This document shows positions 1-14,869 of a stretch of 14,869 nucleotides of DNA, piece by piece. The position numbers were made by a program, and so were the translations under genes. Below the pieces are notes generated by a model, which saw nothing but the letters and a program-made list of their open reading frames with translations, did no database searches and was not told the origin of the DNA. This DNA comes from Clostridia bacterium (GTDB taxonomy: Bacteria > Bacillota > Clostridia > Christensenellales > Aristaeellaceae): NCBI GenBank assembly GCA_024404275.1, contig JAKSQG010000027.1, forward strand, positions 1 to 14,869, given 5' to 3'. Every line of letters begins with the position of its first letter. The first letter of the stretch is position 1.

Positions 1-1833
1 AACAAAACGCTGGCGGCGCAGCTGTGCAGCGAGTTCCGCGCTTTCTTTCCCGACAGCGCGGTGGAGTATTTTGTTTCTTATTACGATTACTATCAGCCCG
101 AGGCGTACATTGCCTCGACGGATACCTATATTGAAAAGGACTCGTCCATCAATGAAGAGATCGACCGCCTGCGCCACAGCGCCACGGCGGCACTGCAGGA
201 ACGGCGCGATGTGATCATCGTGGCGTCGGTCAGCTGCATCTATTCGATGGGTGACCCGAGCGAATACCTGGGGCAGATGATCTCGCTGCGCCCGGGCATG
301 GCCATGAACCGCGAGGAGCTTTTGCGGCAGCTGGTGGAGATCCAGTTCGGCCGCAACGATATCGGCTTCTCACGCGGTGAGTTTCGTGTGCGCGGCGATA
401 CGGTGGAGATCATGCCCGCCAGCATGATGGACAACGCCATCCGCGTGGAGTTCTTCGGGGATGAGATCGATCGCATCAGCGAGTTCAACCCCGTGACCGG
501 CAAGGCAACGCATACCCTGCAGCATGTATCGGTCTATCCCGCCACGCATTACATGACCAATGCCGCCGAAAGGGAAAAGAACATTGCCGTCATTGAGCAT
601 GACATGCATGTGCAGGCGGAAATGTTTGAAAATGAAGGAAAGCCCTTGGAGGCGGAGCGCATTCTGCAGCGTACGCGGTATGACATCGAGATGCTGCGGG
701 AGATCGGCATGTGCAGCGGTATTGAGAATTACAGCCGCTATTTTGATGGACGTCAGCCGGGGGATCCGCCGTTCTCACTGCTGGACTACTTCCCAAAGGA
801 TTTTATCTGCTTCATTGATGAGAGCCATCAGACCATACCGCAGATCCGCGCCATGTTCAACGGCGACAGGATGCGCAAGAGCGCGCTGGTCAATTATGGC
901 TTCCGCCTGCCTTCGGCGTTTGACAACCGCCCGCTGCGCTTTGATGAGTTTGAAGAGCGCATCGGTCAGACAGTGTTTGTATCGGCGACGCCCGGTCCTT
1001 ACGAGGCGGAGCATTCGCTCAGGACGGTGGAGCAGCTGATCCGCCCGACGGGTCTTCTCGATCCGAAGATCATTGTGCGTTCCGCAAAGGGACAGGTGGA
1101 TGATCTGTTGGGCGAGATCCGTGAGGTGACGGCAAGACATGAAAGAGTGCTGGTGACGACACTGACCAAAAAGATGGCGGAGAGCCTGACAGAATACCTG
1201 GAGGATTCCGGCGTCAAGGTGCGTTATCTGCACAGCGATATCCATACGATGGACCGTATGGAGCTGATACGCGATCTGCGCCGCGGCGCGTATGATGTGT
1301 TGGTGGGTATCAACCTGCTGCGTGAAGGTCTGGACATTCCCGAGGTATCGTTGGTGGCCATTCTGGATGCCGATAAAGAAGGCTTTTTGCGCTCCGAGAC
1401 CAGTCTGGTGCAGACCATCGGCCGTGCGGCGCGAAACGCTTCTGGACGGGTCATCATGTATGCGGATGTGCTGACAGACAGCATGACAAGGGCCATCTTT
1501 GAAACGAACCGCAGACGATCCATTCAGGAGGCGTACAACACTGAGCATGGCATTACGCCGCAATCGGTACAGAATGCCATCCGTGCACTGCTGGAGATCA
1601 CGGACGCAGCGGACAACGAAGCTGAACGCGAAGAGGGCGTCAGCGACGAGGAGAAGGCACAGCTCATCCGCGATCTGGAGGACAAGATGCTGGATGCTGC
1701 CGGCAGCCTTGACTTTGAAAAGGCGGCAAAGCTGCGTGATCAGCTGTTTGCGCTGAAAGGACAGGCCCCTGCCGCCCGCCCGCAGCCGCAGCACCGCAAG
1801 CGCCGTGAGTATTACAAGCACGGCAAATCGTAA
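1..1833 (+). CDS. uvrB: Excinuclease ABC subunit B (UvrB), 5' end truncated by the window edge
   Basis: Frame 1 is open from base 1 ([36 protein letters not shown]...). It carries the DESH box ([11 protein letters not shown]), helicase C motifs ([17 protein letters not shown]) and a C-terminal UVR domain ([13 protein letters not shown]). It ends in TAA at 1831-1833. Confidence 0.97.
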
Positions 1834-1847
1834 AGGAGCCTGACAAG

Positions 1848-2789
1848 ATGAAAGTCTATCTTCCGCAGGATATGGATGCCGCGGGCAAGGAATACCTGAT
1901 TGAACGCGGCTATGAAATCAAGATGGGAACGGGTACAACACCCGAGATCATGGCAAAAGAGATCGTGGATTGTGACGCGGTCATTGTGCGTGTGGCACAG
2001 TTTCCTGCGTCTGTGATCAACGCGGCGCCGAAACTCAAGGTAATCGGGCGGCACGGTGTCGGTACGGATAACATCGATGTGGCGGCGGCGACGGCACGCG
2101 GCATCCGTGTGACCAACGGACCGTATTCCAATACAGAATCGGTGGCTGAACATGCCGCGGGGATGATTTTAGCGTTGGCGCATCGCATTCCGCTGCTCAA
2201 TGATGCGGTGCGTGAGGGCAACTGGGGCATTCGTAATTCGCCGATCGGCATGAGCGATATCAAAGGCAAAACACTGGGGTTGGTGGGTTCGGGACGCATT
2301 GCCCTGTCGCTAGCGGAGAAGATGCATTTCGGGTTTGGCATGAAGGTCATTACCTACGGCACACGCCATCCCGAACGGCTGCCGGAATATGTGACGATGG
2401 CGGCATCGTTGGAGAGCCTGTTTGCAGAGGCGGACGTGGTGTCGCTGCATTGCCCGCTGACGGAGGAGACCCGTCTGATGGTGAATGCCGAATTGCTGAA
2501 CCGGATGAAGCCGACGGCGCTGCTGGTCAATACTGCCCGCGGTGAAGTGGTGGATGAAATGGCGCTGTACGAAGCGCTGAAAAACAAGAAGATCACCGGA
2601 GCGGCGGCGGATGTGGCGGCGGGGGAAGTGATGGATAAGAATCATCCGCTGCTGACACTGGATAACTTTATCGTGTCGCCGCACTGTGCCTCCCATACGC
2701 GGGAGGGGAAGATCAACATGGCGGTGCATGCTGCGATGGGCGTGGATGAGGTGCTCAGCGGCAAGGAACCGACCTGGCCGGTCAACTGA
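1848..2789 (+). CDS. NAD-dependent D-isomer-specific 2-hydroxyacid dehydrogenase (phosphoglycerate/hydroxypyruvate reductase-like)
   Basis: 313 aa. It has a GxGxxG NAD fold (GLVGSGRIALSLAEK), the conserved NTARGEVVDE motif and a catalytic His region (SPHCASHT). An AGGAG RBS lies 8 nt upstream of the ATG. The stop is TGA. Confidence 0.9.
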   Translation: MKVYLPQDMDAAGKEYLIERGYEIKMGTGTTPEIMAKEIVDCDAVIVRVAQFPASVINAAPKLKVIGRHGVGTDNIDVAAATARGIRVTNGPYSNTESVAEHAAGMILALAHRIPLLNDAVREGNWGIRNSPIGMSDIKGKTLGLVGSGRIALSLAEKMHFGFGMKVITYGTRHPERLPEYVTMAASLESLFAEADVVSLHCPLTEETRLMVNAELLNRMKPTALLVNTARGEVVDEMALYEALKNKKITGAAADVAAGEVMDKNHPLLTLDNFIVSPHCASHTREGKINMAVHAAMGVDEVLSGKEPTWPVN

Positions 2790-2790
2790 T

Positions 2791-3096
2791 ATGGAAGTAC
2801 AGGGAAAAGCAATGGACAATGCAGCTGCGATCGAAAGAATCAAGGCAATGGAACAACGGTTTGACAGTGCGTTGAAAGCAGCGGCGGAGCTGGATGAAGC
2901 GATTGAACGGTTCAAAGATTCTGCAAAAGACGTGGAAGCGTTGATTGCTTATTATGAATCCGATGCGTGGCGCAACGATTTTGAGGCGGACGCGGAAGGA
3001 AGATTTCCGGCCAACCTGAAACGCGGCGTTTTGTCAGAGGATGGTATTTATAACCTGCTGACGGATTATCAAAGACTGAAGGAAATACTCGTCTGA
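2791..3096 (+). CDS. DUF4298-family small protein
   Basis: It has the YYES..W..DFE.D..G..P..LKRGVLSEDG.YNLL signature that I recognise from DUF4298 proteins. I chose the ATG at 2791, just after the upstream TGA; the ATG at 2812 is an alternative start. The stop is TGA. Confidence 0.75.
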   Translation: MEVQGKAMDNAAAIERIKAMEQRFDSALKAAAELDEAIERFKDSAKDVEALIAYYESDAWRNDFEADAEGRFPANLKRGVLSEDGIYNLLTDYQRLKEILV

Positions 3097-3129
3097 GGGC
3101 TTGCTCCAGATGAAAGGGGGTTCATCGGT

Positions 3130-3612
3130 GTGGAACTGTGGGATGCTTATGATGGGGATTTTAACAAGATTGAGAACATGACGCTGGTCCGAGGTGAAAG
3201 CATACCCAAAGGGGTTTTTCATTTGGTATGTGACGTGATCGTGAAGCATAGTGATGGAACCTTCCTGCTGATGCAGCGGGACTTTCGTAAGCATTATGGA
3301 GGCCTGTGGGAAGCAACCGCCGGCGGTTCGGCTTTGCAGGGAGAAGATGCCGAGACCTGTGCAAGAAGAGAACTGCGGGAAGAAACGGGCATCGCGGCGG
3401 AACATCTGGCTGAAGTGGGGCGTGTGTGGAAAGACCAGACGATCTATACAGAGTTTTTGTGTGTGACAAGCTGTGCGAAAGACAGTGTGACGCTGCAGGA
3501 AGGGGAAACCGTTGCCTATCGTTGGGTGAGCCGCGATGAATTGATTGAGATGAAAGAGGATGAACTGGTAACACAAAGGATGCAGACCTTTATTGAAGAG
3601 CTGCAGCGGTAA
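3130..3612 (+). CDS. NUDIX hydrolase
   Basis: Nudix box GGSALQGEDAETCARRELREETGI (Gx5Ex7REUxEExGU). It starts at GTG, preceded by GAAAGGGGG. The stop is TAA. Confidence 0.9.
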   Translation: MELWDAYDGDFNKIENMTLVRGESIPKGVFHLVCDVIVKHSDGTFLLMQRDFRKHYGGLWEATAGGSALQGEDAETCARRELREETGIAAEHLAEVGRVWKDQTIYTEFLCVTSCAKDSVTLQEGETVAYRWVSRDELIEMKEDELVTQRMQTFIEELQR

Positions 3613-3632
3613 ACGGACTGCGAAGGAGAAAA

Positions 3633-3896
3633 ATGAGCACGAGATCACATTTTATGTGCAGCCTGATCCATAACGGTGTGCTTGGCGGTGGGTTGACGCC
3701 GGATGAGAAGGGCGTTACCTTCAGAACCGGCAAGGTGACCGTTGACGCATAATACAGAAACCTCGTCATCGACAGGGGCGAAATCCGTTCACTCACGTGG
3801 AAAGGCGTGATGGCGGTGTTTGCCATGAAGAACAGGGAAGAATACCGCTTTTTGATTGTCAATAAGCGGCGGTATGTGAGAAATTACGAAGGATAA
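3633..3896 (+). pseudogene. Small PH/GRAM-like domain protein interrupted by an in-frame TAA at 3750-3752
   Basis: A GAAGGAG RBS sits at 3622-3628 and the ATG at 3633. The frame reads MSTRSHFMCSLIHNGVLGGGLTPDEKGVTFRTGKVTVDA*YRNLVIDRGEIRSLTWKGVMAVFAMKNREEYRFLIVNKRRYVRNYEG and ends in TAA at 3894-3896. Both halves are in the same frame and each is under 60 aa, so neither appears in the ORF track. The bacterial PH-like assignment comes from remembered sequence patterns only. Confidence 0.45.
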
Positions 3897-3915
3897 ACAG
3901 AAGACAATCATTTTG

Positions 3916-3950
3916 AAGATGAAGTGCGATGCATTTCATCTTTTTGTTTG
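3916..3950 (+). terminator. Rho-independent terminator after the uvrB-to-PH-like gene string
   Basis: Stem AAGATGAA (3916-3923) pairs with TTCATCTT (3935-3942) and is followed by TTTGTTTG. Confidence 0.6.
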
Positions 3951-3956
3951 ATAAGC

Positions 3957-3976
3957 ATTTAGAAAAATATCTAAAT
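3957..3976. promoter_or_regulatory. Palindromic operator copy 1 (ATTTAG-N8-CTAAAT)
   Basis: ATTTAG at 3957-3962 and CTAAAT at 3971-3976 form a perfect inverted repeat with an 8-nt spacer, just upstream of the -35 element. Confidence 0.55.
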
Positions 3977-3981
3977 ACCTA

Positions 3982-4010
3982 TTGACAGAGATCAAGCATT
4001 GATATATAAT
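3982..4010 (+). promoter_or_regulatory. Sigma-A type promoter for sdpR/sdpI
   Basis: Consensus -35 TTGACA (3982-3987), a 17-nt spacer and consensus -10 TATAAT (4005-4010), about 50 nt upstream of the sdpR ATG. Confidence 0.7.
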
Positions 4011-4030
4011 ATTTAGGCAGTCATCTAAAT
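4011..4030. promoter_or_regulatory. Palindromic operator copy 2 (ATTTAG-N8-CTAAAT)
   Basis: ATTTAG at 4011-4016 and CTAAAT at 4025-4030, with the same half-sites and spacing as copy 1. It lies immediately downstream of the -10 element, 54 bp from copy 1. Confidence 0.55.
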
Positions 4031-4061
4031 AGTTGACTGATGAAACGAAAGGAGATGTACG

Positions 4062-4337
4062 ATGAGCTTCAATGAAACGATGAAGGCTCTGGCAGATCCT
4101 ACAAGACGGGCGATATTGAATATGCTCAAGGAAGGCAGCTTGCCTGCCGGAGAGATCGCCGAAAAGTTCGATATGACCGGAGCAACGATCTCCCATCATC
4201 TGTCCACGCTGAAGAAGGCGGGGCTGGTGAATGAGGAGAGGAAAAGGAACTTTATCTTCTACACGTTGAATGCTTCCGTTCTGGAAGAGATTCTGTTGTG
4301 GATCAGCGAACTGAAAGGAGAGGAAAACAATGATTAA
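4062..4337 (+). CDS. sdpR: ArsR-family winged-helix repressor, SdpR-like autorepressor
   Basis: 91 aa. FKALADPTRRAILNMLKEGSLPAGEIAEKFDMTGATISHHLSTLKKAGLV closely resembles B. subtilis SdpR (YvbA) as I recall it. A GGAG-containing RBS lies upstream. The TAA stop overlaps the start of the next gene. Confidence 0.85.
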   Translation: MSFNETMKALADPTRRAILNMLKEGSLPAGEIAEKFDMTGATISHHLSTLKKAGLVNEERKRNFIFYTLNASVLEEILLWISELKGEENND

Positions 4338-4983
4338 GATGAACAGAGAAGAAAAAAAGGAATTGGTACTGACCACGCTGGTGTGCCTGATTCCGCTGAT
4401 CGCCGGGCTTTTGCTGTATTCGAAACTGCCGGAGGAGATGGCGATCCATTGGGATGCGCAGGGCAATGTGAACGGAACCAGCAGCAAGCTGGTGGGGACG
4501 ATTGTGCTTCCTGGCATTCTGGCGCTGCTCAACCTGATCTTCCCGATGCTGCTGCGTATCGACCCGAAATATGAAAACATGAATGGCAAGCTGAAGACAC
4601 TGACCCACTGGATCATTCCTGTGACCGCGGTTTTCTGCTCCGGAGTCACGCTTGCGGCAGCGCTTGGCGTGAAGACGCATATAGAAGTAATCGCTCCGAT
4701 GCTGGTGGGTGTACTGTTGGTTCTAATCGGCAATTATCTTCCCAAGACAAAACAGAGCTACACCATGGGCATCAAACTGCCCTGGACGCTGAACAGTGAG
4801 GAAAACTGGAATCATACCCATCGTATGGCGGGTTTCCTGTAGGTCATCGGCGGTATGGTGATGATCGTCAGTGGATTCTTTTCCTTCCGCTATATCGCTT
4901 TCATTGCGATTATGGTTGTGATGGTTGCAGTGCCTACTGTGTACTCCTATCTGTATTATAAAAAAGAGAATCATGCGAAATAA
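4330..4983 (+). CDS. sdpI: SdpI-family membrane protein (DUF1648 plus SdpI domain) with an in-frame TAG at 4840-4842; a pseudogene under standard code 11
   Basis: An AAAGGAGAGG RBS sits at 4314-4323. It has an N-terminal DUF1648-like LPEEMAIHWDAQGNVNG and the SdpI core YLPKTKQSYTMGIKLPWTLNSEENWNHTHRMAGFL. After the TAG the same frame continues as a hydrophobic helix, VIGGMVMIVSGFFSFRYIAFIAIMVVMVAVPTVYSYLYYKKENHAK, to the TAA at 4981-4983. The ORF track shows only 4330-4842. Confidence 0.8.
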
Positions 4984-4998
4984 CAACTGAAACACATG

Positions 4999-5040
4999 AA
5001 AAAAAGGATCCGCGGAAGGAAATCTCCGCGGGTCCTTTTG
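4999..5040. terminator. Bidirectional rho-independent terminator between convergent sdpI and the ydcF-like gene
   Basis: Stem AGGATCCGCGGA (5005-5016) pairs with TCCGCGGGTCCT (5025-5036) with one G-U pair. An A-run lies upstream and a T-run downstream. Confidence 0.65.
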
Positions 5041-5045
5041 CAATA

Positions 5046-5654
5046 TCAGTAAGGGAGAAGACCGGCTTTCTGGCACCAGTATTTGACCCAGGCAAGCGCT
5101 TCACGGCAGTGGTTTTTGAGCCAGTACTGGGGGAGCGTGGCACTGCCGGCGCCCTGTGCGTCAAAGCCGGCATCGGCTGCAAGCGCAAGGGCACGGGCGA
5201 CATGGTAATCGCTGGTTACAATCAGCACCGAGGTGGTGCCTTCCGGCAGCATCGCCTTGGCGTTGTCGAGGTTTTCCCGGGTATTGACGGAGGTGTCCTC
5301 CATCAGGATATCCTGCGCCGGGACGCCGAGCGACAGCAGATAGGTCTTCATGGCCTGCGCTTCGGTGATGGGTTCGTTGTACCCACGGGCGCCGCATACA
5401 ACAATGGGACGGGGACGGAGGCAGTAGTGCTGATAGGCCATGTCGAGACGGTCCTTCAGCTGACGGCTTAATGTGCCGTCTTCTTTTACCTGCGCGCCGA
5501 GCACGATGATGGCACTGTCGTTATCGTCAGGGGTTGGGATGGTCCATTCCCGGATGGCGACATAGCCGACAAGGGCGAAAAAAACGACAGCAGCCAGGAT
5601 GAGCAGCAACAAAAGGGTGTGTATCAAAGGGTGTTTCCTTTCTCTTTTGGACAT
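5046..5654 (-). CDS. YdcF/DUF218-family membrane-anchored protein (SanA/ElyC-like)
   Basis: 202 aa with an N-terminal TM helix, then IIVLGAQV..DG..S..L..RLD, VCGARG..E..EA..M..YL...GV and VTSDYH..RA motifs typical of DUF218. An AAGGAG RBS is present. The stop is TGA. Confidence 0.85.
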   Translation of the reverse strand: MSKRERKHPLIHTLLLLLILAAVVFFALVGYVAIREWTIPTPDDNDSAIIVLGAQVKEDGTLSRQLKDRLDMAYQHYCLRPRPIVVCGARGYNEPITEAQAMKTYLLSLGVPAQDILMEDTSVNTRENLDNAKAMLPEGTTSVLIVTSDYHVARALALAADAGFDAQGAGSATLPQYWLKNHCREALAWVKYWCQKAGLLPY

Positions 5655-5669
5655 TGGGGCTGTGCTCCT

Positions 5670-6401
5670 TCAGTAATGATAAAGAATGGTGTTTTGCCCG
5701 GCAGTCAACGGGGAGGCGTTCCCGCTTGCATCGGGCATGAGGCCGCTGAGCAGAAAACTGAAGCTCTCGTTTTCGGCTGAGATAATGTGGTCAAACAATG
5801 TGATGCCGATGCGGCGCAGTGTTTCGTGCAATTCCAGCGTCAGCGAAACATCGGCTTCGGAGGGGGCGGCGCTGCCGCCGGGGTGATTGTGGGCGAGGAT
5901 CAACCCGCAGGCGCCGCTTTGTGTGGCGACGCTGACGATGTGCCGTGTATATACGCGTACCTATGTGGTATCGCCCGAACCGATTTGGGCTGCGCTGAGG
6001 CGTTTCATGCGCGCATCCAGACAAATGACATAGAATTTTTCGTATTTTTCCCCTTCAAACAGGGCTTCGCAGTAGCGGGCGGCGGCGGTGGGAGAAGAGA
6101 GGATCGGCGAATCCTCCTATACGCTTTTGCGGTAGGCACGGAAGAGCGGCAGCATCAGCGCAATCAGGGAGGCGGCATTGTCCCCGATGCCATCGATGGT
6201 TTGCAATTCGTCGGGCGTGGCCTGCAGTACAGCGTGGAGCGAGCCGAACCGTTGGAGCAGCGCATGGGCGATGGGATTGGTATCCCGCCGCGGGATGGCA
6301 AAGGAGAGCAGGAACTACAGCACTTCGTGCGGTGCAAACGCTTCAAGACCGGCGGTTTCAAAACGCGTCCTGAGACGCTTGCGGTGTCCTTCGTGCTGCA
6401 T
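5670..6401 (-). CDS. radC: RadC-family protein (HhH plus JAB/MPN domain) with three in-frame TAG codons; a pseudogene under code 11
   Basis: The minus-strand frame starts at the ATG at 6399-6401, with a GGAGG RBS. It reads MQHEGHRKRLRTRFETAGLEAFAPHEVL*FLLSFAIPRRDTNPIAHALLQRFGSLHAVLQATPDELQTIDGIGDNAASLIALMLPLFRAYRKSV*EDSPILSSPTAAARYCEALFEGEKYEKFYVICLDARMKRLSAAQIGSGDTT*VRVYTRHIVSVATQSGACGLILAHNHPGGSAAPSEADVSLT...DHII. The TAGs appear as CTA on + at 6315-6317, 6117-6119 and 5961-5963. The stop is TGA at 5670-5672. Confidence 0.85.
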
Positions 6402-6429
6402 ACCGGAGCCTCCTTTCGCTGATGTGTCT

Positions 6430-6458
6430 ATCATATCACACTTTATCCGATGACTCAA
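6430..6458 (-). promoter_or_regulatory. Putative radC promoter
   Basis: On the minus strand: TTGAGT (-35, 6453-6458 on +), a 17-nt spacer and TG-n-TATGAT (extended -10, hexamer at 6430-6435 on +). Confidence 0.45.
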
Positions 6459-6469
6459 CAGATTTGCGG

Positions 6470-6498
6470 TTGTTGAAACAATTCGGATATGGTAAAAT
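6470..6498 (+). promoter_or_regulatory. Putative addB promoter with extended -10
   Basis: TGgTAAAAT, with the hexamer at 6493-6498, and a weak -35 TTGTTG at 6470-6475 after a 17-nt spacer. Confidence 0.35.
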
Positions 6499-6520
6499 AA
6501 AAACACAAGGGGGCAGAATA

Positions 6521-9500
6521 ATGGTTTCGATTTATGGCGGGCGTCCCAACAGATTGTGGCCGCATCTGGTGCGGCTCATTCGTTCGGCACGTTCTGAAAA
6601 CAAAAAATGCGTGTTGATTGTGCCCGGAGATTTCACACTGCAGGCGGAGAGGGCTTTGATCCGCGATCTGGACTGCAAGGGCTTTTTTGATATAGAAGTA
6701 TATTCGCTTACCCGATTGACAGGGCAGATTTTGTCGTCCAGACCCCTCTTTGGCCGGAAAGCGATTGATGAAAACGGCAAAAACGTAGCAGTGGCCAGGG
6801 CTGTGCTGGAGCGGAAAAAGGAATTGCGTTATTTTGCCCGTATGTCGGAAAGCACGGGCTTTGTCCAGCGCTGCGGCAGCTGGATTGCCGATATGAAACT
6901 TGCTCAGATCGGTCCCGCGCAGCTGAAAAAATATGTGGATCAAATGCAGGAGGGTGCTGAGAAGGAAAAACTGAGCGATCTGAACGGCATTTTTGAAACT
7001 TATACGGCAATCCTGAGCGATAAGTTTGTGGATAATGAGGATATCCTGACGGCGTCGATTGAAGCATTGCCTGTCAGCGGCATCTTGAATGACACCGAAA
7101 CGATACTTTATGGATTTGACCGGCTGAATGAGGATTATATCCGGTTTTTATGTGCTGCAGCGCCGTTGGCGTCGCATGTGGCAGTCTATCTTGCGATGGA
7201 CCGTGAAGACGCTCCCGACGGTGATTGCTTTGAAACGGTCCGCCAAAGTGCTGAAAACCTGCGGCTGCGTCTGCGCAATCAACATCAGCAGCGGGAATGG
7301 CTCTGGATCGATGAAGAAGCAGACGACAACAGTCCCGTGGAACTCAAATGGCTGCGGGCGCATCTGCTGCAGCCCGGAGTAAAACCGTGGTCTGAGCAAT
7401 GTGACGCGGTGACTCTTTTTCAGGCTTCGGTGCCTTATGTGGAGGCACAGTACCTGACCGAAAGTGTATTTGCCCTTCTGGAAAAAGGGGTGAATCCAGA
7501 AAAAATCGTGATTCTGTGCGGACATCTGGATATCATGGAGCCGCTGCTTTCCGCTCTGTTTGCTGCCTGTGGCATACCGGCCTATTTTGATGTACAGGCG
7601 CCGCTGATTCGGCATGGATTGGCGCGGATGCTGCTGGCAGCCTGCCGTGCGGTCAACGATGGTTATCGCCCGGAGGACATGCTGGAGCTGATCAAATCGG
7701 GATACGCTCCGCTGAGGAGTCCGGAGGGTTGGGCTCTTGAAAACTATATACTGAAGAATGGCGTAACCGGGGCAAAATGGAAGACATCCTTTGACACGGA
7801 TGGCACGGATGGGGAGGTCGAAGCGGCCCGGGTCAAACTGATGGACATGCTGGAAATGCTGAAGGATGAGCTGAAAAACGCACGCACAGGTGCGGAATCC
7901 CTGACGGCTCTTGTCCATCTGATGACGAACGCGCAGGTACCGGACAGGCTGGCGGAAGTACAGGAACAGTTGACAAACGCCGGACTGGGAACGGCGGCAG
8001 TGCAGAACCGTCAGGTATGGGAAACCATCACCGGCGTACTGGAGCAGATGAACGAAATTGCCGGAGAGGAACGCATTCCCGCGGGTGTGATCACCACGTG
8101 GTTGGAAGCGGGACTGATGGGAGCAAAGCTGTCAGCACTGCCGCCTGTTTCCGGCTGTGTCACAGTGGGAGATATCGGTCGGATGATCCCCTTTGAGCCG
8201 GAGCATGTTTTCCTTTGCGGCCTGAGCGATGAAGCGGGGGCAGACCGTATCAATCTGATGAGTGAAGAAACTGTCGAAGAGATGGCAGAAAGCATGCAGG
8301 TTACCATTGGGGAGAGCCTGAAGGATGCCGACAGCATGGATGAACTGACACGGTGGAAACTGGTCTATGCTGCAAAGAAGCACCTGTATCTTTCCTATCC
8401 GCAGGCGTCTCAGGATGGCGCAGCGGCTCGCTGTGACCGTTTTGTGCAGACAGTGACGCGTTTGCTTCCGCAGATGCAGAAGGACGGCAGCCTTGCGGAA
8501 TCACCGCTGCACGCGGTGTCACCCTTGATCGCGCTCGATGAAATCGGCGTCCGCCTGCGGGAGGGGGCACTGAAGGGAGAATGGCTGAAGGCGTGGAACT
8601 GGCTGCTGATGGACGAAAAATACCGGGCAATTGCCGAACAATTGCTGGTACACGCACAGGGACGGCAGAAAACGGAGCAGTTGAGCGAAGAACGTGCCGG
8701 AAAGCTTTTCCGGGATAAGAAGATGAGCATCAGCCGACTGGAGACCTTCGCAGGTTGCCCGTATCGGCATTTTGTGCAGTATGGCTTGAAACCCAAGGAA
8801 AGATAGATGTGGGGCTTTTCGCCCATTGACAAGGGCAACTTTTATCATGCTGCCATTGAGGGCTTTACCAAAACACTGGCAGAAGAACCGGCATGGCCGA
8901 AAATCACCCGCAAAACCTGTGACCGGTTGATGGAAAAAGCGTTGGAACCGCTCGTTGAACAGTGGCGCGGCGGCTTTCTGGAGGGCAGCGCACGCGCCAG
9001 AACGGAAGGAGAACGCTACATTCGTTTGTGCAAGCGGCTGGGGTGGGTGTTTACCCGCGGGGCACAGTATTCGAACTTTAAACTATGCGGAAGCGAGATA
9101 GACTTTGGTACAGAAGGCAGCCGTATGGAGGCGCTGACGCTTGGATTGACCGATGGCTCCAAGGTACTGCTGGAAGGACGCATCGACCGTGCGGAGGAGT
9201 ATGTGAATGAAGATAAAAGATATATCCGCGTGGTCGATTATAAGTCGGGTCATAAGGAACTGAAGCCTGAACAGATTCACATCGGCATGCAATTGCAACT
9301 TTTATTGTATCTGAAGGCGATGCTGAACGACGATCCATCAGCGGTGCCCGCCGGCGCCTTTTATCAATGGATGGGTGATCCGCTGGATAAACCCGACAGC
9401 GAGAAGGATGCGGATGTGCGGCTGGTGGAAGCCCTGAAGCTTAGAGGCGTTGTGTTGGCTGATCAAGAGACGATACGCGCCATGGATGACGAGGATAATC

Positions 9501-9817
9501 CTGCATCAATGGAAAAAATGCTCAAAAAGGACGGAGCAGCGTTTGCGAATAAGCTGGCACTTCGTCTTGAATAGATGGATACCCTGATCGGAAAGGCTTG
9601 CAAGACCGCCGCAAAGCTGACAGAAGAGCTTCGAAAAGGCGAAATTGCCGCTGCTCCTGTGCGGACGGACGACACACACTGTGTTTGTGATTATTGTGCC
9701 TATGATGGCATCTGCCGCCGGGATAAAAGTGACCGCAGCAGGGAAAGAAAGCTGAAAAAAATGAGCCCGGAAGCATTGCTTCAAGCAGAAGAAACGCCCG
9801 TGACAGATCCCTTCTGA
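6521..9817 (+). CDS. addB: Helicase-nuclease AddAB/RexAB subunit B (AddB) with two in-frame TAG codons; annotated under code 11 it would be three ORFs or a pseudogene
   Basis: An AAGGGGG RBS sits at 6507-6513 and the ATG at 6521. The total is 1098 codons, a typical AddB length. Segment 1 (6521-8806) ends ...SISRLETFAGCPYRHFVQYGLKPKER, which includes the first Fe-S cysteine. Segment 2 (8807-9574) carries the RecB-type nuclease motifs GRIDRAEE...IRVVDYKSG...GMQLQLLLY. Segment 3 (9575-9817) carries CVCDYCAYDGIC, the remaining Fe-S cysteines. The TAGs are at 8804-8806 and 9572-9574, all segments share one frame, and the final stop is TGA. Confidence 0.88.
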
Positions 9818-9838
9818 TCGACAGTCGATGGATAGATT

Positions 9839-9870
9839 AAAAAAAGAACGGCTATCATGCCGTTCTTTTT
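9839..9870. terminator. Bidirectional rho-independent terminator between convergent addB and cvpA
   Basis: AAAAAAGAACGGC-tatcat-GCCGTTCTTTTT: a perfect 9-bp GC-containing stem flanked by an A-run and a T-run. Confidence 0.75.
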
Positions 9871-9887
9871 GAATGAGCCGAAGTGCG

Positions 9888-10598
9888 TCAAACACCGTTG
9901 ACAATGAGATGGAATGCCGAGTTGCTGTAGAAAAAGGACATGAGACTGCTTTCGGAAAACAGCGCCGTTACCTGACGCACCGGAATGACGGTGAGAACAA
10001 TGGGCGTCAACTGACAGATGACAAAAACGACAACGGCTCCGCGCAGAAGCCCGAAGATGGCGGCAGTGATGCTTTCACCATGGCGCAGCAGCGGGAAATA
10101 GGTTGTATGACCGATGGCGTTGATGACGGTATGCAGCACCACAAAGCAGAGAAAGAAGCAAATCGTATAGGAAAGGGATTGGATGACCGCCATGACAACG
10201 GTGTGGGAAACATACTCGTTGACGGTGGAAAGACCGAACGGAGCGAGCGAAAGCGATTGCATGTTGGCCCGAAGCAGGGACTCGATGCCGATAGGGAGGC
10301 CGACACCCTTCATGACGCTTTCAAGCGCTGTGCCTGTCAGCCCGGCAGCTGGGGACATGGCCAGGGAATAGTCACCTACCAGTGATCCGGCATCGGTGTA
10401 GGTAACCAACAATTGCATAACGGCCTTGTTCCGGCTGAGCAGTTGAACCAACTGCGGGTAGAATAGTCCCGCCAGCAAAAGGCTGAGAAGGGAAACAAAG
10501 AATCCAAGCGCGGAGGATACCGACCCTCTGTATAGCGAAAAGATGACGCTGGCGACGAGGATCAGCAGTAAAAACAGATCAATGATGTTCATGGTCAT
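9888..10598 (-). CDS. cvpA: CvpA-family (colicin V production-like) integral membrane protein
   Basis: 236 aa with multiple TM helices. The N-terminus MNIIDLFLLLILVASVIFSLYRGSVSSALGF is typical of the CvpA family. Its ATG overlaps the upstream gene's TGA (ATGA at 10595-10600). Confidence 0.8.
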   Translation of the reverse strand: MTMNIIDLFLLLILVASVIFSLYRGSVSSALGFFVSLLSLLLAGLFYPQLVQLLSRNKAVMQLLVTYTDAGSLVGDYSLAMSPAAGLTGTALESVMKGVGLPIGIESLLRANMQSLSLAPFGLSTVNEYVSHTVVMAVIQSLSYTICFFLCFVVLHTVINAIGHTTYFPLLRHGESITAAIFGLLRGAVVVFVICQLTPIVLTVIPVRQVTALFSESSLMSFFYSNSAFHLIVNGV

Positions 10599-11704
10599 CA
10601 GGGAAGCACGACGGCATAGACAGAAGCACCGCTGGCCAACAGGGCACAGCCGTTGGAAGTGATTCCGAGGAAGGCGGTAACGTTGCCGTTGACGGGGATA
10701 TCCAGTCCGGTGAAACGGTTATCGCTGATATCGGCACGGTAAATACCGGAGGCGGAGAAAGCATAGACCTTGTTCTTGTACAAAGCGGCACCGACACATT
10801 CGGAAGGAAGCGTGTAGCGGGTGTCATTTGTACCCTTGAGCAGGCGCAGTTCGGTAAAGCCGCTGCCGTTCTCCACCTGCTGTACAGGCGTGAAGAGCAG
10901 GTAGGCGGAGGAGCCGTTTGTCAGGGAGCTGACGAGCTGCCAGCCGTAGACGGTGGCGGCACCGGCGGGATTTTCAGTGCCGTGGTAATCAAACTGGCGC
11001 AGCTCACGCGTATCGATGACATTGAGCGTGCTTCCGCAGTAGACAACGGAATAGGGCAGACGCTGGCCGAGGTTGGCAGAACCGGTGTTCATCTGTCCGG
11101 CACGGTAAGTGATGAGCGAGGATTGAGGAACAGTGCCGTAAACATCCAGCGAGGTGGTCCAAATGTAGGAACCATCCCCGAAGAAGCCGCAGTCCAACAG
11201 CATGACGTCTTCGTAGTTGTTGCTTTCTGTATCGATGACAGAACCGTTGACATCGATAATCGTCAGCGTGGGGCTGATGTTATCGCCGGTTACCACGGCG
11301 ACATACTTTTCGCCGGTACGGGCGAACTGAATGGTGTCGCCGAGCATGTTGTTGTAGGTGGCGTGACCGTTACGGTCGAGGATCTGCAGCTGACGGCCGC
11401 TCCAGACGGAAATGTAACGGGAACCGGCGTCGAACTGCGCGCCGTTGCCGATGGAAACGCTCCACACCTCCGCACCGGAGCTGGTCAGACAGAACAGTGT
11501 TCCATTGCTGTAATACAGCACACGATCACCGAAGACCGTCACATTCTGATTGACCTGACAGCGCAGGGAATAGGTTTTGATCTTGGAACTGCCCATGTAC
11601 TGGGAAACAAGATAGACCATCAGTACGATAAACACAGCGGCGAGAACAATGATCAGTGCCGCCATGGGTGTTCTTTTTTTCTGCTCGGAACGATAACGCG
11701 GCAT
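10598..11704 (-). CDS. Membrane-anchored repeat protein, probably beta-propeller-like; resembles the DUF5711 family
   Basis: 368 aa. It has a basic N-terminus and a single TM helix (MAALIIVLAAVFIVLMVYLV), followed by a Gly/Ser/Thr/Tyr-rich beta-type ectodomain. It is translationally coupled to cvpA and has an AGGAGG RBS. The family assignment is from memory. Confidence 0.6.
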   Translation of the reverse strand: MPRYRSEQKKRTPMAALIIVLAAVFIVLMVYLVSQYMGSSKIKTYSLRCQVNQNVTVFGDRVLYYSNGTLFCLTSSGAEVWSVSIGNGAQFDAGSRYISVWSGRQLQILDRNGHATYNNMLGDTIQFARTGEKYVAVVTGDNISPTLTIIDVNGSVIDTESNNYEDVMLLDCGFFGDGSYIWTTSLDVYGTVPQSSLITYRAGQMNTGSANLGQRLPYSVVYCGSTLNVIDTRELRQFDYHGTENPAGAATVYGWQLVSSLTNGSSAYLLFTPVQQVENGSGFTELRLLKGTNDTRYTLPSECVGAALYKNKVYAFSASGIYRADISDNRFTGLDIPVNGNVTAFLGITSNGCALLASGASVYAVVLP

Positions 11705-11730
11705 AAGTACCTCCTGAAATCGCTGAGGAT

Positions 11731-11760
11731 ATTATAATCGAAAGGGGCCGCACGCGTCAA
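11731..11760 (-). promoter_or_regulatory. Putative promoter for the DUF5711-like/cvpA pair
   Basis: On the minus strand: TTGACG (-35, 11755-11760 on +), an 18-nt spacer and TATAAT (-10, 11731-11736 on +), within the 72-nt gap after the SNF2 gene's stop. Confidence 0.55.
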
Positions 11761-11776
11761 CAATAAAGGAAGATCA

Positions 11777-14700
11777 TCAATCCTCGAACAGCCGGAGCAG
11801 GTCCTCATCCGAAAGTTTGGTGGGGATACTCTCGCCGGGGGTAATCAGCTTGTCGAACAGCTTGCGCTTGCTCTGACTCATGTTGACGACCTGTTCCTCA
11901 ATGGAATCGTGAACCAGCAAACGGATGACTTCCACCTCTTTGGTCTGGCCGATACGGTGAGCACGGTCGACGGCCTGTTCCTCGGCAGCGGGGTTCCACC
12001 ACGGGTCATAGTGAATGACCATATCGGCACCGGTCAGGTTCAATCCCGTGCCGCCGGCTTTGAGCGACAGCAGGAAGACATTGCCGTGGCCGCCGTTGAA
12101 GCTCTCACAAAGACGGACACGCTCGTCAGCAGGGGTTTCACCGTCCAGATAAAGGCAGCCGATGCCTTCCTGACTGAGACGCTGCTCGATGAGGCGCAGC
12201 ATGCGTGTGAACTGGGAAAAGACCAATGCACGGCGGCCGTTTTGCAGGGCGGGAATCAGAATATCCACAAGCATTTCCAGCTTGCCGGATGCGGCGGTGT
12301 AATCGTTCAGGCACAAAGCCGGATGGCAGCAGATCTGACGCAATTCGGTGATGGCACTGAGCACTTCGGCACGGCCTTTGGCCATGCCGCGGGTGGTAAG
12401 AATCTGACGCACATAATCGCGCCGGCGCAGCAGGCTGGCCGAATAGACCTTTCGCTGCTCGGCAGACATTTCGGCCATCATGATCCGCTCGAGTTTGTCG
12501 GGCAGCTCGGTCAGCACATCCTTCTTGAGGCGGCGCATCAGGAAAGGACGGATGCGCTGCATCAGTTCCTCGCTGTTTTCACCTTCGCCGTAACGGTGCA
12601 TGAAAGCGGAAACACGCGGCAGGTAACCGGGAAGAATAAAGTCAAAAATACTCCACAACTCACCCGCGTGGTTTTCCATGGGCGTACCGGTCAAAGCGAT
12701 GCGGGTTTCGGCTTTGATGGTCTTGACTGCGTGAGCCGCCACACTGGAGGCGTTCTTGATCTGCTGCGCCTCATCCAGCACGGCAAAACGGAAGGTCACC
12801 TCGGACAGAAGCGGTGCATCGCGGCGGATCAGCGGATAACTGGTCAGTACGATGTCGGGTGCTTTGGAGGAGGAAAGACGTTCGATCTGCTCGGCACGGG
12901 TCAGCTGACTGCCGCTGATGAGCATGACATCCAGCTCGGGAGCAAAGCGTTTGAACTCACTCAGCCAGTTGTAGGTCAGCGAAGTGGGGGAAACGATGAC
13001 AGAGGGTTTACGTTCCGGTTCGGTACGGATGTAGAACAGTAGGGCGGCGATGGTCTGAATGGTTTTGCCAAGGCCCATATCATCGGCCAGAATGCCGCCC
13101 ATGTGCAGGGAATGCAAGGCGCAGAGCCACTCGAAGCCGCGCTGCTGATAGGGGCGAAGGCAGGTAAGCGGCGATTTTACCTCGGCGACTTCCATGCGGG
13201 CGGCACGCTGTGCTTCCTCGTCCAGCGTGACAGGCAGGTGATGGGCACGGATGAGCGCTTCCATATAGGAAGCACGGTACATGCCCATTTCCTGCGTGCC
13301 GGTCAGCTCGTTCGATTCGCAGACGGCTTCTGCCAGTGGCTGCCAGTCGTCGGTATCTTCCAGTGAAATGAAGGAACCATCCTTGAAACGGAAATAGGAG
13401 GAACGGTCGCGAAGAGCACGCATGAGCGGCAGCAGTTCCTCAGTGATTTCGTCATCCTGCAGCAGATCGAGCTTCAATTGGCCGCCTGCACCGCGCAGCA
13501 TGCCGGTAAGGCGGGGCTTACGGGGGGTGAGTTTTTTGAAATCGTTGCTGAAAAATACCTCGGCATAGTGTGTCAGCTCGCCGTCGCCTTCGGAGACAAA
13601 ACGATAGATCTCATCATTGCCGCTCAGATAGACAAGACCGCCGGAAACACGGAAGCCGGCGTTGGCGAGCACTTCGGTCACTTCCTGCTCATGCTGCGCG
13701 TCACGCAGCAGCAGTGGAGAAACACTGTCGTTGGGGGCAGCGAAGGGATCGATCACGGTATCGCCGTAAACAAATTCCGTGCGGGCGGTGACACCGACGC
13801 CCTCACGATCTAGGTAGACCCGTGCACGGAAGGGTTCCCGGATCAGTTGGCATTCCAGCTGGGGAGCGAAGCGCAGATCACCGATGCGGCTCAGCCAGAG
13901 CACAAGCTGGCTCATGACACGCCCGGTGCGGGCGGGTTCGAACAGAAACTCCGTGACGCCGTTGATGCGGTCTTTGACACACAGGCCGGCGACAGCTCGC
14001 TGCGCTTCGGGGACGCGCGTGACATAACCATCGACCAGTGCGTAGGAGCAGTCGGCTGTCAAAGGGATGAAATCACTGTCAAAACCCGCTTCGATGCACA
14101 GATGATGGACACCCTGGCGCGCCCGGTCGGACAGCGTAAAGGTGAGCGGAAGAGGATCGGTCTTGACCCCTTGCTGCGCAATGGCGGTGGTGCCGACCTG
14201 CAGGCGATAATCCAACCGCTCCAGAAGTTCCCAGACACGGGCAGCGGTGGTCTGCGGCAGGGGCATCATGCGTGCATCCTGAATGCCGATGGAAATACCG
14301 GCAAAACGCAGCGTATCACAGTGGGAACGCAGAATTTGCAAAAGTTCTTTTTGCGGCGCGGGAAAACGCATCCAGTCGGCGAAAAAGGTAAAGCCTTTGC
14401 CGACCTGCAGGGAACGGTTGCCGTCGATGGTGTCCAGCAATTCGGGGATGGAGCGCACCACATACATACGGTCCTGACCGATGCGCAGTCCAATGCTGAA
14501 GGAAGAGGGGGTAATGCGAAGCTCAGGCTCAAGACGAATCAGGGTGGATTCGGGCAGCGCGTATTCCATCATAGAGAACAGGGTCTCGGAACGTTCCTTG
14601 GCCTGCAGTTCCTTGAGGGATTTGAGGGCTCCTGATTCTCCGGCAGAGAGCAAGGCGGCGAGAAGATGGCGGCAGCGGGGAGAGGCGTCGCAGCTGCATT

Positions 14701-14869
14701 CGCCGCTGCCATTGGCAAACAAGTGCACTTCATTGCGTACGCCAGCCACTGAGTAGGAAATATATTCGGGGCAGCGCTTGTTTTCAGTCACCGCACCGCG
14801 GCGGTAAAGCATTCTGCCTGCATCAAATTCTTCGTTTCCGAAGCGTTCCAGTAATCTGGTTACATCCAT
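11777..14869 (-). CDS. SNF2-family DEAD/H helicase with an N-terminal SWIM zinc finger; the start is at or beyond the window edge
   Basis: At least 1030 aa. SWIM CxC..CxH motif (GECSCDASPRCRHLLAALL), SNF2 motif I (GGILADDMGLGKTIQTIA), motif II DEAQ (VLDEAQQIKN) and helicase C motif VI (QAVDRAHRIGQTKEVEVIRL). An ATG falls exactly on the last 3 bases of the window, so the true start is uncertain. The stop is TGA. Confidence 0.9.
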   Translation of the reverse strand: MDVTRLLERFGNEEFDAGRMLYRRGAVTENKRCPEYISYSVAGVRNEVHLFANGSGECSCDASPRCRHLLAALLSAGESGALKSLKELQAKERSETLFSMMEYALPESTLIRLEPELRITPSSFSIGLRIGQDRMYVVRSIPELLDTIDGNRSLQVGKGFTFFADWMRFPAPQKELLQILRSHCDTLRFAGISIGIQDARMMPLPQTTAARVWELLERLDYRLQVGTTAIAQQGVKTDPLPLTFTLSDRARQGVHHLCIEAGFDSDFIPLTADCSYALVDGYVTRVPEAQRAVAGLCVKDRINGVTEFLFEPARTGRVMSQLVLWLSRIGDLRFAPQLECQLIREPFRARVYLDREGVGVTARTEFVYGDTVIDPFAAPNDSVSPLLLRDAQHEQEVTEVLANAGFRVSGGLVYLSGNDEIYRFVSEGDGELTHYAEVFFSNDFKKLTPRKPRLTGMLRGAGGQLKLDLLQDDEITEELLPLMRALRDRSSYFRFKDGSFISLEDTDDWQPLAEAVCESNELTGTQEMGMYRASYMEALIRAHHLPVTLDEEAQRAARMEVAEVKSPLTCLRPYQQRGFEWLCALHSLHMGGILADDMGLGKTIQTIAALLFYIRTEPERKPSVIVSPTSLTYNWLSEFKRFAPELDVMLISGSQLTRAEQIERLSSSKAPDIVLTSYPLIRRDAPLLSEVTFRFAVLDEAQQIKNASSVAAHAVKTIKAETRIALTGTPMENHAGELWSIFDFILPGYLPRVSAFMHRYGEGENSEELMQRIRPFLMRRLKKDVLTELPDKLERIMMAEMSAEQRKVYSASLLRRRDYVRQILTTRGMAKGRAEVLSAITELRQICCHPALCLNDYTAASGKLEMLVDILIPALQNGRRALVFSQFTRMLRLIEQRLSQEGIGCLYLDGETPADERVRLCESFNGGHGNVFLLSLKAGGTGLNLTGADMVIHYDPWWNPAAEEQAVDRAHRIGQTKEVEVIRLLVHDSIEEQVVNMSQSKRKLFDKLITPGESIPTKLSDEDLLRLFED

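Follow-up and report, generated by a model that had tools for sequence, protein, structure and literature searches.

In-frame TAG codons in radC and other genes of an uncultured Clostridia lineage probably specify glutamate

The DNA analysed here (the window) is the 14,869-nt stretch of contig JAKSQG010000027.1 (assembly GCA_024404275.1; positions 1 to 14,869 of the forward strand) from an uncultured Clostridia bacterium (Christensenellales; Aristaeellaceae). The genome (G+C content 55%) is neither AT-rich nor visibly reduced. One of the eleven genes in the window, radC, which is the main subject of this report, contains three in-frame TAG codons. The gene begins with an ATG, preceded by a GGAGG ribosome-binding site 7 nt upstream, and can be followed to a TGA stop without any other stop codon or change of frame. 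The features of this gene are as follows:

5670..6401, minus strand: radC (RadC/JAB family, with an N-terminal helix-hairpin-helix [HhH] region), 243 sense codons followed by a TGA stop; intact provided that TAG is a sense codon
6315..6317, minus strand: in-frame TAG, codon 29, at the Glu of the HE-x-L-E-LLL motif
6117..6119, minus strand: in-frame TAG, codon 95
5961..5963, minus strand: in-frame TAG, codon 147, in SGD-x-x-E-V-x-V
5787..5891, minus strand: JAMM/JAB metal-binding motif, H171-x-H173-x7-S181-x2-D184 through D204-H205, in invariant columns of the homologue alignment

The positions of the three TAGs in a single frame had been given by an earlier reading of this DNA (the original prediction), which left the strand unstated, and were confirmed by translation of the minus strand. 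That reading also placed the HhH segment between the first and second TAGs and the JAB signature after the third, with both motifs intact, and residue positions and Pfam matches bear this out: the HhH segment IDGIGDNAASLI corresponds to residues 69-80, and the JAB signature HNHPGGSAAPSEAD...DH corresponds to residues 171-205. Residues H171, H173, S181, and D184 and the upstream glutamate E121 form invariant columns in an alignment of 33 RadC homologues, and all five are kept in the window RadC. In a Pfam search of the translation with TAG masked (X), the RadC-like JAB domain (PF04002) was matched with E=6e-31 and 107 bits (cutoff 22.1) at residues 102-217 (profile positions 2-117 of 121), a match running across TAG 147. 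The HHH_2 match (E=2.5e-6) scored 28 bits (cutoff 27), and the UPF0758_N match (E=2.9e-5), with X at position 29, scored 24.5 bits, slightly below the cutoff of 27.1.

The window RadC is 54-61% identical to full-length RadC proteins of related Clostridia metagenome-assembled genomes (MAGs). It shares with the RadC/JAB family (PF04002, UPF0758) the combination of an N-terminal HhH region and a C-terminal JAB domain carrying HxHx7Sx2D, as well as the conserved radC-DUF218 neighbourhood, but differs in its three TAG codons and in a C-terminal tail that is shorter than those of its closest relatives. A 211-amino-acid open reading frame (ORF) antisense to radC (window 5787..6422, plus strand) is reported by the ENA and Logan gene callers in place of radC; this ORF is an annotation artefact that hides radC in protein databases.

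The alignment columns that correspond to TAGs 29, 95, and 147 contain Glu in 33, 22, and 29 of the 33 homologues, respectively. At codon 95, Glu is found in most of the closest homologues, and the column of codon 147 contains 29 E, 3 Q, and 1 L. The outgroup sequences carry GAG or GAA at codon 29, and GAG is present in four outgroups at codon 147. The original prediction had placed the first TAG at a Glu of E-L-L-E-L-L, in agreement with the invariant Glu of this column; the ortholog alignment that it had proposed extends the observation, showing that all three radC TAGs, and not the first alone, lie at Glu columns.

By exact protein matches, the window belongs to the NCBI MAG GCA_024500545.1, labelled 'Clostridia bacterium' (locus tags MJ136_, proteins MCQ24535xx). 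The relatives that form a clade with the window come from different samples and assemblers than the window itself. They include ENA ERZ27247129 (L081; 97.9% nucleotide identity to the window), Logan SRR27361835 (L086 and L090; 93.9%), and NCBI GCA_045599485.1 (L085, L088, and L089; 89.5%), 34 kb of whose 59-kb contig was covered; 14.5 kb of a second relative's contig was also covered. Outside this clade, a scan of GTDB representatives yielded RadC proteins that, among the matches listed (L001-L004, gut and rumen MAGs), were ~60% identical at best. All three radC TAGs are kept in all four clade genomes (the window, L081, L086, and L085), which span a synonymous divergence (dS) of ~0.5. No in-frame TAA or TGA was found in any gene shared by these four genomes, and their shared genes contain a single indel, the loss of 1 nt from the last codon of the L085 radC.

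The ratios of non-synonymous to synonymous substitution rates (dN/dS), calculated by the Nei-Gojobori method, are 0.097, 0.035, and 0.086 for radC against L081, L086, and L085, respectively, and those of the neighbouring genes are 0.02-0.15. The four segments delimited by the TAGs, for which separate estimates had been proposed in the original prediction, gave dN/dS values of 0.04, 0.10, 0.05, and 0.11 against L085 (dS ~0.5), and all four are under purifying selection. The radC gene is not decaying. The suggestion that it may be the most decayed gene of the set does not hold, since the TAGs are kept in four genomes, no other disabling change is present, and dN/dS is like that of the neighbours; similarly, sense codons at all three sites in relatives together with damaged motifs, which had been named as the mark of a plain pseudogene, were not what we found, as the relatives keep TAG and the motifs are intact.

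In total, six in-frame TAGs are present in otherwise intact genes of the window, i.e. three in radC, two in addB, and one in an sdpI-like gene. The features of the latter two genes are as follows:

6521..9817, plus strand: addB, one 1098-codon gene from the NCBI start, divided by two in-frame TAGs into three same-frame ORFs
8804-8806, plus strand: in-frame TAG, addB codon 762
9572-9574, plus strand: in-frame TAG, addB codon 1018
4330..4983, plus strand: sdpI-like gene with an in-frame TAG at codon 171 (4840-4842), which is spanned by the SdpI domain (Pfam)

The PDDEXK_1 domain of addB spans both of its TAGs (Pfam; profile covered at 2-247 of 247), and the dN/dS values of the gene are 0.07-0.10; in the NCBI annotation, addB appears as three proteins (MCQ2453525, MCQ2453526, and MCQ2453527). 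For the part of sdpI after TAG 171, variation is too scarce to gauge selection (one synonymous and one non-synonymous change). The six TAGs among 4558 coding codons correspond to 1.32 per 1000, matching the rate of ~1.3 given earlier. Half of them fall in radC, within 5% of the coding codons, a local excess with a hypergeometric P of 0.0027 (~0.03 when corrected for the 11 genes of the window). In a set of 27 clade genes, TAG accounts for 3 of 18 Glu-type codons in radC and 7 of 745 elsewhere, and the corresponding P, calculated from codon counts, is ~7e-4 (~0.02 after correction). The 'clear local excess' of the original prediction is therefore real but modest (corrected P ~0.02-0.03), and it was singled out after the fact. 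The TAG-bearing genes are repair-type or accessory genes and GAA-rich (radC, addB, pcrA, mrfA, ligA, snf2, sdpI, and HAD), and no TAG was found in asnS, the ABC transporter genes, glgP, hprK, or uvrB in the clade sequence examined. Rare codons usually accumulate where expression is weak, and drift of this kind in weakly expressed, GAA-rich repair genes is the most likely reason for the high density of TAG in radC.

Across the clade, 17 in-frame TAG sites were identified in 10 genes over ~35 kb. Thirteen of these sites correspond to Glu, two to Gln, one to Ser/Ala, and one to Trp. Besides the three sites in radC, the sites assigned to Glu are as follows:

addB 762: TAG in the window, GAG in L085, and GAA in L086; proteins P0245 and P0248 read 'KPKERE' there
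addB 1018: family column E 12, Q 8, and D 3 (28 homologues); counted as Glu
addB 432, sdpI 8, and snf2 114: GAG or GAA in sister strains
HAD hydrolase 101: E in the 79%-identical protein P0273
pcrA 583: aligned with the first E of EEERRL in Geobacillus PcrA
pcrA 632: GAG in L090 and E in PcrA
ligA 639: GAG in L089
mrfA/yprA 357: the E of NALELGVDIG in B. subtilis YprA and in Lhr, in motif V

TAG matches Glu far more often than chance allows. In the coding sequence of the window, GAG accounts for 20% of the codons that lie one step from TAG, and the binomial probability of at least 13 of 17 sites at Glu given this proportion is 8e-7. When the column frequencies were used to score each amino acid, the log-likelihood was -27.4 for E and -69.0 for the next best residue, Q. 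The swaps observed from strain to strain are mainly the transversion between TAG and GAG; if TAG specified Gln, Trp, Tyr, or Lys, cheap synonymous transitions (TAG/CAG, TAG/TGG, and the like) should dominate the swaps, and they do not. In addition, approximately two-thirds of the nonsense mutations arising under a G:C-to-T:A bias would be expected to be TAA or TGA, but none was seen (P ~2e-7). Conserved positions in genes under purifying selection accommodate in-frame TAG, and no other type of stop codon is tolerated in this way.

From these sequence comparisons, we consider it probable that radC is intact and expressed and that UAG is a sense codon, most probably for Glu, in this uncultured Clostridia lineage, with TAA and TGA being the sole terminators seen. 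The data point to translation of UAG, with an inserted residue that suits the invariant glutamates of unrelated enzymes, and TAG is more likely to be a rare but ordinary Glu codon used throughout the lineage than a read-through device specific to radC. On this view, each radC TAG would go back to a GAG codon that underwent one G-to-T substitution before the sampled genomes diverged (dS ~0.5), and the three would have persisted since then because they act as synonymous codons for Glu. Such decoding would call for a dedicated UAG-decoding Glu-tRNA, e.g. a tRNA-Glu carrying the anticodon CUA and possibly aminoacylated by a glutamyl-tRNA synthetase relaxed at anticodon position 36, and RF1 (release factor 1) would have been lost or weakened. 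On balance, and with somewhat less confidence, we favour the broader interpretation that the clade, a group of about genus rank among uncultured Clostridia of gut or rumen, uses an undescribed bacterial code in which UAG specifies Glu through a dedicated tRNA, RF1 having been lost or disabled, and which arose by codon capture in a TAG-poor family. TAG is nearly unused as a terminator in the wider family, which is the precondition of codon capture and fits this route.

Several observations weigh against the assignment of UAG to Glu. The first concerns precedent. According to Shulgina & Eddy 2021 (PMC8629427), every bacterial stop-codon reassignment then known involves UGA, and the later papers found add further UGA cases only; a 2026 preprint on translation-table prediction gives the prokaryotic repertoire as tables 4, 11, and 25 plus the genome-wide use of UAG for pyrrolysine (Pyl) in archaea. 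The literature searched shows neither UAG-to-Glu nor reassignment of UAG to any standard amino acid in bacteria, and the prior for such a code is thus low. The second concerns the four sites that do not correspond to Glu:

mrfA 69 and mrfA 744: swapped with CAG (Gln), in the SRR27361835 strain only
addB 109: swapped with TCG/GCG (Ser/Ala)
sdpI 171: TGG (Trp) in the near-identical strain P0271

The family column of sdpI 171 contains 27 W and 8 F in 40 sequences, being aromatic in 36 of the 40 and never Glu, and the site lies within a membrane helix, in which a Glu would be a drastic replacement. This site may reflect a W-to-E substitution or a functional loss tolerated in an accessory, immunity-type gene, or ambiguous decoding. 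The Gln and Ser/Ala swaps would be expected from the normal non-synonymous turnover of a Glu codon, but all of them come from one Logan-assembled strain (SRR27361835) that is unusually rich in TAGs. This strain (L086/L090) has seven lineage-specific TAGs (sdpI 8, addB 109, addB 432, snf2 114, ligA 639, mrfA 69, and mrfA 744), and the other clade genomes have none to two each; this may mean that TAG is becoming commoner in the strain or that the assembly is of poorer quality.

The terminators and tRNA genes provide further points of this kind. All 27 clade gene models end in TAA or TGA (0 of 27 in TAG), as do the eleven window genes, but this result does not discriminate between the readings, because the outgroups also almost never use TAG: in the 20-kb loci of L001-L004 and L077, a TAG stop was found in 3 of 80 long ORFs, one of them being the L001 radC itself, and TAA and TGA dominate at ~55-60% G+C in a simple ORF count. 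No tRNA(CUA) was found in ~50 kb of clade DNA (the window, L081, L085/L088/L089, L086, and L090), and the window itself contains no tRNA gene and no Rfam match. The one clade tRNA-Glu(CUC) within reach has an unchanged anticodon stem-loop. It belongs to a tRNA-Gln(CUG)-tRNA-Glu(CUC) tandem, which adjoins DUF218/radC in the outgroups and sits upstream of pcrA in the TAG-bearing clade, at the following positions:

L001, 1528-1680: tRNA-Gln(CUG)-tRNA-Glu(CUC) tandem
L003, 11493-11646: the same tandem
L004, 11488-11641: the same tandem
L089, 2405-2557: the same tandem
L090, 2411-2563: the same tandem

Between the clade and the outgroups, the anticodon loops of the tandem are identical, and compensated changes are present in the acceptor and T stems. 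A tRNA-Glu mutated from C36 to A, which would carry CUA, was considered as the decoder and is ruled out for this copy, as the clade keeps CUC with the anticodon stem-loop unchanged. A search for the family tRNA-Glu with a CUA anticodon yielded one unrelated high-GC contig (L087) in JGI metagenomes and nothing in the viral set of IMG/VR. This contig (JGI Ga0187893_10017680) contains two truncated tRNA-like genes of 64-67 nt (4425-4488 and 8201-8267) that seemingly have no D-arm; their anticodons are CUC and CUA, and ARAGORN names the second tRNA-Pyl.

Part of this evidence would also be expected if UAG were translated without a single meaning, i.e. if RF1 were weak or had been lost and UAG were read by near-cognate tRNAs (Gln, Tyr, Trp, Lys, and Glu) to give mixed products. 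TAGs would then persist wherever a mixture or a low yield of product is acceptable, chiefly in genes that, like radC, are weakly expressed. The occurrence of Trp, Gln, and Ser/Ala at sdpI 171, mrfA 69 and 744, and addB 109, the failure to find a CUA tRNA in the clade DNA examined, and the restriction of TAGs to repair-type or accessory genes all agree with such a state. However, the 13 Glu sites include invariant motif glutamates of PcrA, MrfA, and RadC, and the likelihood points strongly to E. Near-cognate tRNAs that read UAG insert mostly Gln, Tyr, and Lys rather than Glu. Mixed decoding therefore predicts mostly CAG, TAY, or AAG sites, which were seen in only 2 of the 17 cases, and we regard it as unlikely.

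A regulatory device specific to radC, in which the three TAGs are tuned to the efficiency of UAG decoding, appears very unlikely. TAG is indeed denser in radC than in any other gene (3 of 18 Glu-type codons, versus 7 of 745 in the rest), and the three radC TAGs are kept across the clade, but the estimated probability that all three would be retained by chance over a dS of ~0.5 is roughly 0.6. This retention is unremarkable because the sole synonymous exit from TAG is one specific transversion, and other old TAGs (addB 1018, pcrA 583, and mrfA 357) have been retained equally well. The TAGs share neither context nor structure (the +4 bases are G, T, G, G, A, A, G, G, C, and C), and the absence of a common nucleotide context argues against context-dependent read-through; codon drift under low expression is the simpler explanation. 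The original prediction that radC may be tolerant of, or regulated by, UAG read-through was thus right in direction but undershoots, given that 10 genes carry TAG at 17 sites, of which 13 correspond to Glu, and no sign of regulation was seen.

Assignment of UAG to another residue, either Gln, as in phage code 15, or Pyl, as in some archaea and bacteria, has the merit that both are known uses of UAG in phages and prokaryotes, and Gln in particular accords with the two strain-specific TAG/CAG swaps and with the Q found in 8 of 28 homologues at addB 1018. If UAG specified Gln, however, synonymous TAG/CAG transitions should dominate, and they account for 2 of the 17 sites against 13 at Glu. Gln would also have to stand in for glutamates that are invariant (RadC E29, present in 33 of 33 homologues, EEERRL of PcrA, and LELGVD of MrfA), and its log-likelihood is 42 units below that of E. 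Pyl, a bulky lysine derivative, is even less plausible at invariant glutamates of unrelated enzymes. We give this explanation, with Gln and Pyl taken together, a slightly lower standing than a radC-specific device.

Finally, there is hardly any room for the explanation that radC, addB, and sdpI are plain pseudogenes or that their TAGs are sequencing or assembly errors: public annotation does treat the genes as broken (addB split in three, radC skipped for the antisense ORF) and the sdpI TAG at a Trp codon resembles a classic TGG-to-TAG nonsense mutation, but the agreement of four independent assemblies from different samples excludes errors, the radC segments after each TAG are as constrained as those before, which rejects the pseudogene reading, addB is likewise under purifying selection downstream of its TAGs, and two TAGs lie upstream of pcrA motif VI and in mrfA motif V, respectively. 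The hallmarks of pseudogenes are not seen, as the in-frame stops are always TAG and never TAA or TGA, omega (dN/dS) is ~0.04-0.10, the same lesions are found in four genomes, and there is no frameshift other than the deletion in the last codon of the L085 radC.

Some features of the neighbouring genes were also recorded. An ArsR/HTH_5-type regulator gene (4062..4337, plus strand) overlaps the start of the sdpI-like gene (4330..4983, plus strand), an organization that resembles the sdpR-sdpI arrangement. In L081, the first ~132 codons of sdpI (window 4330..4725) are a strongly divergent allele, and the rest of the contig is 98% identical to the window, placing a recombination breakpoint near window position 4726. 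The DUF4298 and NUDIX hydrolase genes are separate in the window (2791..3096 and 3130..3612), with a TGA between them, and are called as one 266-amino-acid ORF in L086 (1415..2215).

Peritrich ciliates use a nuclear code in which UAR specifies Glu. For the trypanosomatid Blastocrithidia nonstop, PMC12153298 likewise gives 'UAR for glutamate'. The window lineage resembles these organisms in that UAG is reassigned to Glu, with GAG as its one-step neighbour; however, theirs are eukaryotic nuclear codes in which UAA is reassigned as well and eRF1 is altered, whereas in the window lineage the change is restricted to UAG, TAA often serves as a terminator, and the organism, being a bacterium, has RF1 and RF2 as separate factors. 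The bacterial reassignments of UGA (to Trp in table 4 and to Gly in table 25) are similar in being genome-wide and in placing one type of stop codon in frame in conserved genes, and in these cases the matching release factor has typically been lost and a new tRNA gained; the window lineage differs in that it involves UAG and, presumably, RF1. Gut phages with UAG-to-Gln (code 15) and some archaea with genome-wide UAG-to-Pyl also use UAG as a sense codon in prokaryotic systems, and in the window lineage, as in these archaea, coding density barely drops, so that standard pipelines miss the recoding, but in the window lineage the residue would be Glu and the genes are chromosomal housekeeping and repair genes rather than phage genes. 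In a read-through survey (PMC7918605), in-frame stops are described in bacterial genes under purifying selection, as here, but those are scattered events ascribed to read-through, whereas the clade has one type of stop at 17 sites with a consistent residue. Reassignment from stop to sense is a known kind of change, and the combination of this codon, this amino acid, and this domain of life would be new.

If the interpretation is true, this would be the first known case of a bacterial chromosome in which UAG has been reassigned to a standard amino acid, adding to the table of natural genetic codes a new entry from free-living bacteria with normal G+C content. The lineage would provide a natural test of codon capture, as the surrounding family is already TAG-poor, and natural Glu-specific amber decoding would be of interest to genetic-code engineers. 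Standard annotation fragments or drops genes in these MAGs, which leads to inflated pseudogene counts and to distorted completeness and functional profiles.

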